Below, in pieces: positions 49,591-58,149 of a DNA stretch of 64,000 bases. The stretch's first letter is position 1, and every line of letters begins with the position of its first letter. The stretch comes from Thermoanaerobaculia bacterium. Its GTDB lineage: Bacteria; Acidobacteriota; Thermoanaerobaculia; Multivoradales; Multivoraceae. The stretch is from NCBI GenBank assembly GCA_963664405.1, contig OY761158.1, positions 2,592,001 through 2,656,000 on the forward strand, in the 5' to 3' direction. The notes beneath the pieces were generated by a model. That model ran no database searches, was not told the DNA's origin, and was given only the letters and a program-made list of their open reading frames with translations. The position numbers and the translations under genes were made by a program.

Positions 49591-49768
49591 GAAGACTTGC
49601 CGGGCTCTCTGCTCCTGGTCTTTGGTCAATTGTCGTTGGCAGGCGAGAGGGTGCTGGCGGTGCTTCGCGCCCTATCGACCGGGCCCTCGGTGCAAGCTGT
49701 GTGAGGGTCGCCGAAAACCCGCAAAAGATGCGTCTCGACTCTCCGAGAAGCGGGCCTGTTATCGGCGG

Positions 49769-50122
49769 TCATAAAGTGCGGGATTCCGGCTGTGTAGTGG
49801 CGCTTTTGGTTTCATCCTCCTCGAGAAGGGACCGGTGCCGAAGGAGGATGTAGCGGACGTATTGAGGGTCGAGCTCGTCGTTGGTCAGGGCTCGATGTAC
49901 GGAGCGGTAGTAGGCAAGTGAGTGAATCTGCGGCAGCGGATCGGTGCTGAGGCGCCGTCGCAAGGTGGCGAGTCGAATGGCATGGGCAAGCTCTTCGAGG
50001 GGGACGTTGGCTTGATAGAGCTTGTCGGCGATGGCCCAGTCTCGGCGCCGAGGTCTAGGCGGGGTTTTAGGAGCGTCGAGGTAGAGGCGGATGAGCTCGG
50101 CGCGATACTCCTGTCGGATCAC
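49769..50122 (-). CDS. Element A fourth ORF (helical, unknown function)
   Basis: GTGA overlap with istB; homologous to 57793-58149 (IHSLAYY vs IRSLAYF). Confidence 0.75.
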   Translation of the reverse strand: MIRQEYRAELIRLYLDAPKTPPRPRRRDWAIADKLYQANVPLEELAHAIRLATLRRRLSTDPLPQIHSLAYYRSVHRALTNDELDPQYVRYILLRHRSLLEEDETKSATTQPESRTL

Positions 50123-50892
50123 GAGGTCTTCGCACTGCGCCGTCGAGGGCGAGTGCCGCTTCGGCGGGCCGAAGCGCGCTTCTTGGCGTGCTCCTTGGAC
50201 TCCTTGAGCCGATAGGAATCGCCCTCGATGTTGACGAGCTCGCAGCGATGGACGAGGCGATCGACGATGGTGACGACGGTAGTAGCGTTGGGGAAGACCT
50301 CTCCCCATTCTCCAAAGGACTTGTTTGTGGTGATGAGAAGGGACTTATTTTCGTACCTGCGGGAAACGACCTCGAAAAGTAGATCGGCGTGGCGCGTGTC
50401 GTAGGACAGATATCCGAGCTCGTCAATGCAGAGCAGGGATGGGCGCGCAAAGAGCGCGAGCTTGCGCTGAAGGCTGGTCGAGGAGTCTTGTTCGGCGAGG
50501 GTGTTGAGCAGCTCCGAGGCGGTGAGGAATCGGGCGGTGGCTCCACGTAGTACGGCTTGATGGGCGAGATTCTTGGCAATGAGCGTCTTGCCGATGCCGT
50601 TTGGCCCTATCAAGACAGCGTTGTGCCCTCGGGCGAGCCACTCGAGCCGAAAGAGATCTTCGATCTGCTCGCGGTCGATCTTCTTGGGCCAATTCCAGTC
50701 GAAGTCGGCCAGCGGCTTGAAGGTGCCGAGCCGGGCCCGACCCAGGCGTCGCTCCAGTCCGCGACGGGCTCGCTCCTGCTCTTCCCAGTCGAGCAGGTCG
50801 GGGAGCCAGGGTTGGTTGGCGACCTCATCCCAGTGGGCTAGGAGGCCATGGAGTTTCAGGGCTGTGGCACGCTCTTGGTCGGTGTTGTTCAT
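50119..50892 (-). CDS. istB: IstB-like AAA+ ATPase
   Basis: DFDWNWP, GPNGIGKT, IDELGYL, ITTN, DRLVH, GDSYR. Confidence 0.92.
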   Translation of the reverse strand: MNNTDQERATALKLHGLLAHWDEVANQPWLPDLLDWEEQERARRGLERRLGRARLGTFKPLADFDWNWPKKIDREQIEDLFRLEWLARGHNAVLIGPNGIGKTLIAKNLAHQAVLRGATARFLTASELLNTLAEQDSSTSLQRKLALFARPSLLCIDELGYLSYDTRHADLLFEVVSRRYENKSLLITTNKSFGEWGEVFPNATTVVTIVDRLVHRCELVNIEGDSYRLKESKEHAKKRASARRSGTRPRRRSAKTS

Positions 50893-51061
50893 TCGTCGTC
50901 CTCCTCGTCGTTGGGGTTGTCGTAGTCGGCCAGTGCATGGGGAGTGACCGTGAGCTCCCGGATCCTGGGATCGTCGGGGAGCTGGACAGGCAGCGCGGGT
51001 AGGAGTCCCCGCTCGTGGCGCCGACGATCGAGGATGAGTCGCACCGCTTCGGGATGCGGGG

Positions 51062-52910
51062 TGAGAGTGAGCACGATAATCGATGGGAATGTTGGCCATT
51101 CTGAGCACGGTAGGTGAGGGAAGGGTGTTTGGTCCCTCAAGTAGTGTGCTCAAGACTAGGTCCGTCGGCATCATCCCCGCCGAAGGCGGGCCGTCGGGGA
51201 TCCGTCCCGAATGCTGTGGAAATTGAGAATGGCGTAACCTCCTAGTGGTCAAACACATCGCCGGTTAGGGCGAACGGAGGATTACGCCATGGTGGAGAAT
51301 ATCAACGAGGAAGGGGAAGCTGCACGCTTCCGTCAGGACATTCGTTCGTTGTTACGCGAGCGTGTTCGTGCGGCGATCGAGATCACACTCGAGGAAGAGC
51401 TGTCCGAGGCGCTGGGCTGCAGCGCCTACGAGCGTTCAGGCGAGCGTGCGGGCTATCGCAACGGCAAGCAGCGTCGTCTGATCACGACGGCGTGTGGGTC
51501 GAAGGAACTGGACATTCCACGAGGACGGCTAGTCGGCGAGGATGGGGCCAGCGTAGAGTTTCGCAGTGCGATCGTGCCGCGTTACGCTCGTCGTACGCAG
51601 GAGGTCGATGACGCGATCCTGGGTGCGTATCTGGCTGGCGCTAACAGCCGCCGGATCAAGAAGGCATTGGCTCCGCTGCTGGGTGAGGAGCACCTGTCCA
51701 AGAGCGCAGTTTCGCGTGTGGTGTCTCGGCTGAAGGAGCTTTTTGCTCGCTGGAGTGAGCGCGATCTGTCGGAGGAGTCCTACGTGCTTCTGTTTCTCGA
51801 TGGCTTTCACCTGAAGGTCCGCTTGGCCCGTCGAGTGGTCTCGGTACCGGTGCTGGTGGTGCTGGGTGTGACTCCGGACGGCACCAAGGTGCTGGTGGCC
51901 TTACGTTTAGCCGCGAGCGAGGCCGCCGAGCACTGGAAGTGGCTGATCGAGGATCTGAAGGCCCGAGGTCTTCAGGCTCCGCGCTACCTGGTCACGGATG
52001 GCCACAAAGGGCTGGCCGCGGCGCTGAAGGCTTGGCCTGAGGTCAAAGTCCAGCGCTGCGTCCAACACAAGTGGGAGAATCTGAAGAAACACTGCCCGGT
52101 GCACGCACACGACGAGCTGCGGCGTGACTGGCACTCGATCGTACGAGCCGAGGACGCGGCACAGGCCCGCAAGGCCTACGCGGCGTTCGTCACCAAGTGG
52201 TCGCGACTAGTCCCGGCGGTGGCTCGCAGCCTTGAGGAGGCAGGGTTCCAGCTACTGACCTTCTACGAGCTCCCCAAATCGCTGTGGAGTTCGGTGCGCA
52301 CGACCAACGCTCTGGAGAACCTGAACCGCGAGTTTCGTCGCCGCACTAAAACCCAGGGCTCCTTTGCCACCGAGGCTGCCGGCGTCACGCTCCTCTGGGG
52401 GCTCGTCGCCTTCGGGCAGATACACCTGCGAAGGATTAACGGCTACCGGGCGCTTCAGCTCCTGCTCGAGGTTGAGAGGGCCGCGTAAACGGTAGGATTT
52501 AGCAAAAGACGACTCGGAGGACTACGCCTGAACCCATTTCCACAAAAAACGGGACACATCCGCCGTCGGGGCCTGACGCGCAGTCCATACTTGTTCTTTC
52601 GCTGATCACGCTGAACGAGGGCTGACACGCAGCGATGGGATGAACGGCACGCTATCTGATGGGCGATCGAGGCGGTTCGCCGAGCTTCCATCGCGCTTGG
52701 GCCCCTGGTTGCGCCCTCAGATACCTTGAACGGAACACCCATTCCCACCAGACAACGTGATCGGGTTTCCTCGAATCGCCATCAAATACTGTGAACAAGA
52801 CCGTCTGAGGCAAGTGGCAGCGAAACGCAGCTTCGGCTAAGTCCTTCAAAAGGCTACGCGACCATCACTTATCGTGATCGGACCGCCATCGATTATCGTG
52901 CTCACTCTCA
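51062..52910. mobile_element. Non-autonomous TG...CA element (477 bp once IS256 is removed)
   Basis: Perfect 25-bp IR TGAGAGTGAGCACGATAATCGATGG; 5-bp duplication CGGGG (51057-51061, 52911-52915); second imperfect end repeat at 52862-52879. Confidence 0.9.
51198..52561 (+). mobile_element. IS256-family element (transposase 51289-52488)
   Basis: YRNG, LFLDG, VTDGHKGL, QRCVQH, RTTNALENLNREFRRR; imperfect IRs; 8-bp duplication GCCGTCGG. Confidence 0.95.
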
Positions 52911-54198
52911 CGGGGATCCTTTTTCGAGGGCCTCGTCGATCGCCACTGCAAGCTCCCTGGGTCCACTCTCGGCAAGGAGCTCGAGGAGTCTGGCGACGGC
53001 ACTCGAGAGTCGTCTCTGCCGTCGGGCCAGCTCCCGCAGGAGCTCTTCGGCCTGGGGCACCGTACGCAGCAGGTAGTCCTGGCCGCGCTGTGTACGTGCC
53101 TCGCGTTTCTGTCGTTCCAGCTCTTCTAGGTGACGGGGGTCTTCGATGATCTGGCCCTTGTCCCAGGACCTTGTGTGCTCGGCGATGAGCTGCTCGCGAT
53201 CGAAGATGCGCACACGCTCCGGGTCTGCGGCGATCTGTAGCGAGCGGGCGATGCGATCATGCGGGATCGAGTAGCGATTCGCATCGAAGCTCAGGTAAGG
53301 AGTGCGCCGCGTGATCCGCTCGACCCATTCGTGGCAGGGGAAAGGCTGCGCCGGAAGGCTCACGAGATGAGAGCGCTCCTCGAGATAGGCCTGCTCGACG
53401 GTGCGACGCCGGTCCTGGGGCCACGGGCGCTTCATCGCTCGGTCGCGACACCACTCCAGAGCGTCCCGGTTCAGCGCTTCTCTGTCCCAGGTGCGACGCA
53501 GCGGAAAGAAGGAAGTTCTGACAAAACGAATGGCTCGTTCGACGCGACCTTTTTCATTTCCTCGTCTGGGAGCAACGGGCCTTGGATCAAAGCCGTAGAA
53601 GTCGGCGAGCTCGAGAAGCCGTGGATGAAAGCGAATGGCGCTGCGGCGCCGCTCGAGCACAGCGCTGCGCAGATTGTCGTAGAGGTGGATCTTGGCCAGA
53701 CCCTCAAAGAAGGAGAAGGCGAGGACATGCCCGGTCAGGAAGCTCGGCAGACGAGCGTCGTAGAAGAAGTGCAGAAAGAGAGCTCGCGAGTAGCTCAGCA
53801 CCATGACGAAGGCGTAGAGACGGCGCTCTCCGCCATCGACCTTTCGGGTGCCGAAGTGAGCCCAGTCCACCTGGGCCTGTTCGCCGGCAAGCGTACGGAG
53901 CACAAAGAAAGCCTCAGGCGCCTTGCGGGGGCGCAGGCCGAGCTCGGCAATGCAGTGGCGGAAGTGATCCTCCCCACCGGGATAGTCACGCTTCTTGACC
54001 ATCTCGTAGAGCACGCTCGCCGGCAGCTCCGGGTAGCGCTCAAAGACTTCCTGGATGAAGGGGACGAAGCGATCGACCATGGACGCTCGTCGCGGCGATC
54101 GAGGCCGGCTCAGCCCTTCGCGTCGAAGGACTCGAGTGACCGTCGAGTGATGGATTCCCAGATGGCGGGCGATCGTGTTGCGCCGCCAGCCCTCCGAC

Positions 54199-54723
54199 TC
54201 ATAGAGACGGCGGATCTCGGCGGCGAGCTCGGGAGAGATCATCCCGCGCCCGCCTGCGCACCGGGCGTACTCGGCGCGATCGCAAGAAGTCGTGGCGGAC
54301 AATCGGCTCGCAAGGATGGCGGCACAGCCTGCAGAGAAGCTCCTCGTTCCGACCTCCAACGGACAAGCCTTGCAAAAACAACGGAAGCGGCGCGGTGGGC
54401 CATGACGCCACCGTCGCAGGGCAGCCCCCGGTGCGGCAACTGTGATGCGTCACTTTCTTTGAGCCTTGCTGCTTGCAATCTCGATAGGCCTGCTGACGAC
54501 GAGCATGCAAGCGGCGCCCTCGCGGCGTCTGCTGATAGCGACGCCCGGCCCCGCGAAGGCTGTGGCGCCGAGCCTCATCCCGGCACTCCGGCGTGCAATA
54601 ACGATGGCCGCGATCGCACCAAGAGCAAATGTAGACAGCTTGCCGGCAACGATCGCAAACGAAACGGCGACAATCGGGACGGCGGCGCACGGCCCAGGCC
54701 TCCTTCGGCCTGGACTTCGCCAC
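54199..54723 (-). CDS. Element A upstream Cys-rich (Zn-finger-like) basic ORF
   Basis: CDRC...CSWCDRGHRYC, KVTH, CRLC; homologous to 55126-55521; start uncertain. Confidence 0.75.
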   Translation of the reverse strand: MAKSRPKEAWAVRRRPDCRRFVCDRCRQAVYICSWCDRGHRYCTPECRDEARRHSLRGAGRRYQQTPRGRRLHARRQQAYRDCKQQGSKKVTHHSCRTGGCPATVASWPTAPLPLFLQGLSVGGRNEELLCRLCRHPCEPIVRHDFLRSRRVRPVRRRARDDLSRARRRDPPSL

Positions 54724-57796: not shown

Positions 57797-58149
57797 CCCG
57801 AAGCCACTATCGGCGCCAGCTCCTCCGCCTCTATCGACTCCTTCCCGACACCCCGCACCGCTTCCACCACGGCGACCGCGTCATCGTCGACCAGCTCTTC
57901 GACCAAGACCTGCCTCTCACCGTCCTCCAGGCCGCCCTCCTCCTCGGCTCCGCCCGACGCGCATGCCGAGATCCGCGCCTACCAAAGCTCCAGCCCATCC
58001 GATCCCTCGCCTACTTTCTCCCCATCCTCCGAGAACTCCCCACGACGCCACCCCCCGAGGGGTACCTCGACTATCTGCGCCACACCCTGAGTCACGCCTC
58101 GCGGGGACAAAAAACCGACTCGCAGCCAACTAAGTGCGCTTTCTCGTAG
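57793..58149 (+). CDS. Element B fourth ORF (helical, unknown function)
   Basis: ATGA overlap with istB; stop codon lies inside the terminal IR. Confidence 0.8.
   Translation: MTRSHYRRQLLRLYRLLPDTPHRFHHGDRVIVDQLFDQDLPLTVLQAALLLGSARRACRDPRLPKLQPIRSLAYFLPILRELPTTPPPEGYLDYLRHTLSHASRGQKTDSQPTKCAFS

Follow-up and report, generated by a model that had tools for sequence, protein, structure and literature searches.

The element at 51062-52910 of the window, by which we mean the whole 64,000-nucleotide stretch of DNA analyzed, is very probably a 477-bp non-autonomous, MITE-like derivative of a Tn6049-family transposon that has captured an insertion sequence of the IS256 family. A preliminary description of the same DNA had gone beyond a simple MITE and had suspected a large pseudoknotted RNA, possibly a ribozyme or a guide RNA, in the interior of the element. 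The main value of the present analysis is a correction: the apparent large pseudoknotted RNA consists of ordinary transposon ends and chance complementarity.

The outer element ends in perfect 25-bp inverted repeats, TGAGAGTGAGCACGATAATCGATGG, and the window copy is flanked by a 5-bp target duplication (Table 1). It splits the istA gene of another mobile element, about 57 codons ahead of the stop codon. The first protein of this host carries Mu-transpos_C_2 (82.8 bits) and rve domains and the second is an IstB_IS21 protein; an IstA with rve followed by an IstB ATPase defines the IS21 family, to which the host element belongs. It is present in eight copies in the genome, seven of which are uninterrupted and contain CGGGG once each, so that they represent exact empty sites for the insertion in the window. 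The empty-site joint was also found in contigs of three public runs. Elsewhere in the genome, an intact copy of 477 bp consists of the two parts of the window copy (136 + 341 bp) placed end to end. The 25-bp repeats, the 5-bp duplication and the IS256-family element inside, all reported in the preliminary description, are thus confirmed by the sequence, the empty sites and the contig joints.

Table 1 Positions in the window of the outer element, the captured insertion sequence and the IS21-family host
Feature	Positions	Strand	Remarks
istB of the IS21-family host	50119-50900	-	start approximate; IstB_IS21, 202 bits
Left 5-bp duplication CGGGG, made by the outer element	51057-51061		once in uninterrupted IS21 copies; contig joints 51056->52911
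Left 136 bp of the 477-bp non-autonomous element	51062-51197	+	first ~92 bp (perhaps 130) homologous to Tn6049-like left ends
Left terminal inverted repeat, 25 bp, 5'-TG	51062-51086	+	includes site L1 (51069-51086)
Sub-terminal site L2, 18 bp, GAGCACGGTAGGTGAGGG	51103-51120	+	5' arm of the "two-stem hairpin"; same position in 32/32 family left ends
Sub-terminal site L3, 18 bp, inverted	51134-51151	-	3' arm of the "hairpin"
Left 8-bp duplication GCCGTCGG from the IS256-family insertion	51190-51197		contig joint 51189->52562
IS256-family insertion sequence, 1364 bp, imperfect terminal repeats	51198-52561	+	transposase ORF 51289-52488 (399 aa)
Right 8-bp duplication GCCGTCGG	52562-52569
Right 341 bp of the 477-bp element: interior, then right end	52570-52910	+
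Sub-terminal site R2, GATCACGATAAGTGATGG on the - strand	52862-52879	-
Right terminal inverted repeat	52886-52910	-	includes site R1 (52886-52903)
Right 5-bp duplication CGGGG	52911-52915
istA of the IS21-family host, 5' part (rve + Mu-transpos_C_2)	52911-54359	-	remainder 50889-51061

The 477-bp unit contains no transposase or other credible coding sequence. Its longest open reading frame in the natural short copy has 79 codons and no relative among the proteins of 43-139 residues in a collection of 5.8 billion proteins, and none of the four ORFs tested from the intact copy matched Pfam. A scan of that copy for consensus promoters and terminators likewise yielded none of either. The statement that the unit lacks a transposase once the IS256-family element is removed therefore holds for a form that exists in nature, with no ORF exceeding 79 aa.

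Copies were sought in the genome of the window, a single contig of 6.78 Mb, by BLAST with the two parts of the element and the insertion sequence, and their ends were then read out. The outer element is present 15 times, as eight short (477-478 bp) and seven long (1849 bp) copies. In the right part, 11 copies are 100% identical, three 99.4-99.7% and one 95.9%. Most copies have single-copy flanks; three, including the window copy, are located within or next to other repeats, and one pair is in tandem. No two copies have both flanks in common, which identifies them as independent insertions rather than segmental duplicates. Clear duplications of 5-7 bp were seen at ten of the 15 sites, and all differ except ACCGG, which occurs at two unrelated sites. 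Five copies have no clear duplication of this length; copies of this kind include one with 4 bp, two with an imperfect duplication or 3 bp at best, a diverged one, and two in tandem. With related terminal repeats, a target duplication with its empty site, non-coding content and many near-identical copies at unrelated sites, the element is MITE-like.

Two arrangements of the copies deserve description. At 3800330-3802657 of the genome, one long and one short copy are arranged head to tail, their abutted ends 1 bp apart, and the outer flanks do not form a duplication. Such a junction is reminiscent of the reactive tandem junctions of IS21 and IS30, and the closeness of the two copies argues against strong target immunity. 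Within 10 kb, at 6485606-6495279, there are three copies: the diverged short one, a long one and a short one.

The inserted element belongs to the IS256 family: it encodes a Mutator-type transposase, has imperfect terminal repeats and is flanked by 8-bp duplications in the copies examined. Its 399-aa transposase scores 295.7 bits with NF033543 (cut-off 150) and 293.9 bits with PF00872. The genome contains 11 full copies, and the element has gained more of them inside another element (seven) than standalone (four), a clean natural case of this kind. The seven internal copies all agree in junction, 8-bp duplication and orientation, whereas the targets of the standalone copies are unrelated (CTTCAGAG, ACGACGAA, TAAGAAGG and one of 7-8 bp containing GGCTTCA). 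Among the seven long copies, six are each flanked by a clean outer duplication of their own. One inner junction in one orientation, unrelated standalone targets and separate outer duplications are most simply explained by one capture followed by movement of the composite. The IS256-family element would have entered the interior of the outer element a single time, and the resulting 1849-bp composite would then have moved as a unit, by means of the outer ends, to six or more additional sites; istA of the IS21 copy in the window would be one of its landing sites.

The long copies could also have arisen without composite transposition, either by repeated entry of the IS256-family element into existing short copies, given a strong target preference for GCCGTCGG beside a small GC hairpin, or by gene conversion. 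The insertion sequence is active by itself, as its four standalone copies attest, and recombinational copying could draw on perfect homology in the short copies, 136 bp on one side of the insertion point and 341 bp on the other. Gene conversion among short copies would in fact yield the same picture as composite transposition, outer duplications included. Arguing against repeated entry are the standalone targets, which bear no relation to GCCGTCGG, the use of the same base pair and orientation in 7/7 insertions, and the clean outer duplications of six long copies, as expected if the long form itself inserted. We consider these two routes together unlikely, though they retain some probability, and regard a single capture with subsequent movement of the composite as the simplest history.

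The relationship to an autonomous transposon became evident from the right 51 bp of the element, which match six further genomic sites at 86% identity. At five of them lies a full transposon copy of 3555-3559 bp with a target duplication of 5-6 bp; this transposon is called the partner hereafter. Each copy contains four genes, which encode a 212-aa HTH protein, a 474-aa rve transposase (PF00665), an AAA_22 ATPase and a 115-aa protein. The transposase has rve as its only domain; the ATPase weakly resembles MuB (E 0.012) and TnsC (E 0.086). Outside the partner copies, the genome has no further gene for this transposase. Two observations concern relatives of its genes in the window. At 49591-49701 the window encodes 37 residues with 81% identity to the C-terminal end of the 212-aa HTH protein, probably left over from a related element immediately upstream of the IS21 copy. 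Paralogues of the 115-aa last gene product, about 41% identical, are part of a different element that is highly repeated; one of them lies at 57844-58077 of the window and about 25 more elsewhere in the genome.

Two plasmids, pMOL28 of Cupriavidus metallidurans and pHS87a, carry annotated transposases 48% identical to that of the partner and have the genes in the same order. The element concerned is Tn6049, reported from C. metallidurans CH34 and from the P. aeruginosa plasmid pHS87a as a 3.5-kb element with a gspA-like ATPase and 12 copies; its published ends are a 12-bp imperfect repeat starting with TGTGC and 4-bp direct repeats (PMC2864759, PMC4739549). The partner shares with Tn6049 a size of about 3.5 kb, the order of a small HTH gene, an rve transposase gene, a gspA/ExeA-like AAA ATPase gene and a small ORF, and the occurrence of many copies per genome. 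It differs in that the repeats are 25 bp long and start with TGAGAG and that the duplications are mostly 5 bp (5-6 bp in the partner). The 25-bp repeat is absent from the pMOL28 locus at up to three mismatches. Judged by its sequence, the partner is therefore a relative of Tn6049 and not Tn6049 itself, since the layout fits and the repeats and the length of the duplication do not.

The ends of the partner match the repeats of the 477-bp element at 20 of 25 positions on the left and at 23 of 25 on the right. The repeat of the element thus has five mismatches in 25 to the left end of the partner, whereas ends found in Planctomycetaceae and Chromatiales assemblies are identical to it, so that the true parent may be a relative missing from this genome. 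The resemblance extends inward. When the 18-bp core of the repeat was used to scan for sites with up to six mismatches, the short element contained sites at positions 8+, 42+, 73-, 429- and 453-, with 0.24 chance matches in shuffled sequences, and the partner at 9+, 43+, 75-, 3508- and 3532-. Common to both is a layout of three sites on the left, two direct and one inverted, and two on the right. The proposal of the preliminary description that a transposase of the Mu/Tn7/IS21 type moves the element in trans is borne out to the extent that related ends and the same site layout are found in a partner with an rve transposase and a MuB/TnsC-like ATPase. Based on these shared ends and sites, the partner transposase presumably mobilizes the 477-bp element in trans.

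This architecture is not confined to one genome. A search with the exact repeat pattern identified eight loci in assemblies of Acidobacteriota, Planctomycetaceae, Pirellulaceae, Polyangiaceae, Chromatiales and others, together with 23 metagenome loci. The ends sort into a left type and a right type, and the same architectures recur across phyla. A protein-based scan yielded 483 loci that encode relatives of the transposase, the best 80 of which were kept; 39 nhmmer hits in these 80 provided 25 distinct left ends, namely non-duplicate + strand hits whose start lay inside the locus and which extended to profile position 80. Together with the seven first ends they form a set of 32, in which the positions of L1 and L2 are constant and L3 follows downstream in inverted orientation. 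Just inside L3, several left ends of the family (L133, L134 and L135) have the motif CATCATCC and, after it, a short GC-rich hairpin. In the short element the motif and hairpin occupy positions 107-131 (51168-51192 of the window), and the IS256-family element was inserted directly after it.

The two-stem hairpin that had been noted at 51102-51152 is real insofar as the segment folds very stably (z -6.0 and -6.4 on the two strands). It does not stand as an RNA structure, for it consists of L2 and L3 in inverted orientation. Among the seven first left ends, five L2/L3 pairs change on both sides (reached by 36 of 500 shuffles) and the covariation score is 0.249 versus 0.177 (reached by 7 of 500). 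In the full set of 32, sites within an element are more similar to each other than sites of different elements, the effect being strongest for the direct pair L1/L2 (value reached in 2 of 5000 permutations) and weaker for L2/L3 (139 of 5000). The L2/L3 palindrome was considered as a true hairpin and rejected because it is the direct pair that shows the greatest similarity. That order of similarity indicates binding sites that co-evolve with their protein rather than selection for base pairing, and the modest L2/L3 covariation in the seven ends is attributed to the same co-evolution.

The 477-bp element would then have retained just what the transposase of the family needs, the 5'-TG...CA-3' termini with three sites on the left and two on the right. 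The rve transposase and the MuB/TnsC-like ATPase of the partner would bind to these sites, pair the ends and insert the element by a staggered cut, mostly of 5 bp. In the interior, about 300 bp, no function was detected. One might suppose that the interior nevertheless contributes transposase-binding or enhancer sites that raise the frequency of transposition, since the scan returned three further matches to the 18-bp site (171+, 212+ and 346-), eight in the element altogether as compared with the 0.24 expected in shuffles, and an inner inverted pair, 212-239/335-363, scores 23 versus 16.8 +/- 2.7 (10 of 300 shuffles reach this value). The internal matches are, however, weak (5-6 mismatches in 18), the autonomous transposon has none at the same threshold, other short derivatives have different interiors, and an insertion of 1.37 kb that separates the left end from the motifs is tolerated in the long form. 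Internal sites of this kind are quite improbable, and a unit that depends on its ends remains the preferred reading.

Folding was used to judge whether the element carries in its interior a large functional RNA (a ribozyme, guide or scaffold) with a defined, perhaps pseudoknotted structure. The whole 477-nt unit does fold better than shuffled sequences, with z-scores of -5.2 and -5.8 on the two strands. Comparison with dinucleotide shuffles had been set in advance as a test by which the RNA proposal could be refuted, and in this comparison the interior (element positions 96-428) performed no better than the shuffles. On the + strand its energy is -119.4 kcal/mol versus -118.8 +/- 5.4 kcal/mol (z -0.11, 42 of 100 shuffles as good) and on the - strand -121.2 versus -124.9 +/- 6.1 kcal/mol (z +0.61, 72 of 100 as good). 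With interior z-scores around zero, the excess stability of the whole unit, equal on both strands, comes entirely from the terminal repeats and the site pairs. Of the long-range helices listed in the preliminary description, all are present, three as perfect and three as imperfect complements, but they are about as frequent as expected by chance. Complementary 7-mers are mildly enriched (8 versus 3.2 +/- 2.5 in shuffles, 28 of 500 of which reach 8), and one of the helices, GATCACG/CGTGATC, is formed by the core of the transposase site motif. The crossing 8-bp pair, which had been read as a pseudoknot, is the sole complementary 8-mer; 0.79 are expected and 223 of 500 shuffles have at least one. 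The proposed nested fold by itself amounts to -39.7 kcal/mol, and the best fold that contains it reaches -106.9 kcal/mol, 12.5 kcal/mol above the minimum of -119.4. The cUUCGg hairpin lies outside the local minimum-energy fold (z +0.85). It had been taken to favor the + strand, but the - strand has a CCCGCCUUCGGCGGG of its own, and the tetraloop therefore gives no strand preference.

Databases and homologues lead in the same direction. Neither the region in the window nor the intact copy matched Rfam at E values up to 10 except for two matches at chance level, one of 15.1 bits against a gathering threshold of 221, inside the IS256-family element, and one of 12.9 bits against 37.8. The element is absent from the 40 nearest relatives. 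Among 400 other genomes of the phylum, one contains the full interior, 100% identical, and 30 have matches of only 20-40 nt (E 1e-5 to 0.01), which are taken as chance. The eight genome and 23 metagenome loci found with the repeat pattern match in the ends and not in the interior; tblastn and tblastx searches against the partner transposon and these 31 loci found nothing in the interior, and blastn of the interior against its own genome returned its own copies only. The collections searched contain no diverged homologue of the interior. In the single diverged copy of the element (about 96%), all four substitutions that hit the proposed helices disrupt a pair and none is compensated; the sole change on both sides falls in the terminal repeat.

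With respect to transcription, one RNA-library contig of 195 nt (depth 2.7) covers element positions ~75-266 in the short form, across the short-form junction, although contigs of this type define neither strand nor ends. Carry-over of DNA or read-through would explain it, and it is at most a weak hint of transcription. In the same run, which is on record as RNA, most of the stretch is without cover, which is uninformative either way. Set against the stability of the whole unit, the six long-range complements and this contig are the confinement of the stability to the ends, the distance of the proposed fold from the minimum, the absence of an Rfam match above chance, the rarity of the interior among relatives, its replacement by unrelated sequence in other short derivatives, and the lack of compensatory changes. 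A large structured RNA in the interior, whether ribozyme or guide, is on this evidence highly improbable. We assign an equally slight chance to a lineage-specific RNA transcribed from the interior, either as a guide or scaffold for the Tn6049-like transposase-ATPase pair or as a regulatory RNA that is taken along to new loci. The 195-nt contig overlaps the region, but such an RNA would have to be structured too loosely, or to depend too much on protein, to register in energy statistics. The preferred reading remains that of a MITE-like unit with transposon ends.

Further short derivatives and a second host genome were encountered. In the metagenome loci L064, L073 and L070, pairs of family ends lie 324, 315 and 436 bp apart, respectively, and enclose interiors unrelated to that of the 477-bp element; miniature derivatives seem to arise repeatedly in the Tn6049-like family. 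One copy of the 477-bp element, 100% identical, was found in a genome from another family of the phylum. The same genome has a copy of the 3.56-kb transposon at 99.5% identity, and 757 bp of its sequence are identical to a repeat present in about 20 copies in the window genome. Its unique flanks match the window genome at 76% or not at all. The identity of elements across families of the phylum suggests recent horizontal spread of a mobile pool, or else a chimeric assembly.

The ends of phage Mu and Tn7 begin with 5'-TG and finish with CA-3', contain several transposase-binding sites that are arranged differently on the left and on the right, and generate 5-bp duplications with the help of a partner AAA+ ATPase. 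The 477-bp element and its partner resemble them in their 5'-TG...CA-3' termini, the unequal sets of sites on the left and right, the 5-bp duplications, and an ATPase that is weakly MuB/TnsC-like. They differ in that the partner transposase lacks Mu- or Tn7-specific domains (rve only), that genes for TnsA or a target selector are absent from the partner, and that the tandem pair of copies speaks against strong target immunity. Another comparison class are the bacterial MITEs, the Tn3-derived inverted-repeat miniature elements (TIMEs) and the mobile insertion cassettes (PMC4133298), which are short and non-coding, with repeats that match those of an autonomous element, target duplications and many near-identical copies, and are able to carry passenger DNA between their ends. 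All of this applies to the element studied here. In contrast to those elements, the parent is a heteromeric transposon of the Tn6049 type, with a transposase and an ATPase, rather than Tn3 or a single-gene insertion sequence, there are several sub-terminal sites at each end, and the passenger is itself an active insertion sequence. In the papers found to mention Tn6049, no miniature derivative of it appeared; one of the family is documented here, and the little-studied family gains a defined end layout of three left and two right sites, which is kept in 32 left ends from many phyla. The 477-bp element is thus an additional example of a known, MITE-like sort of mobile DNA.
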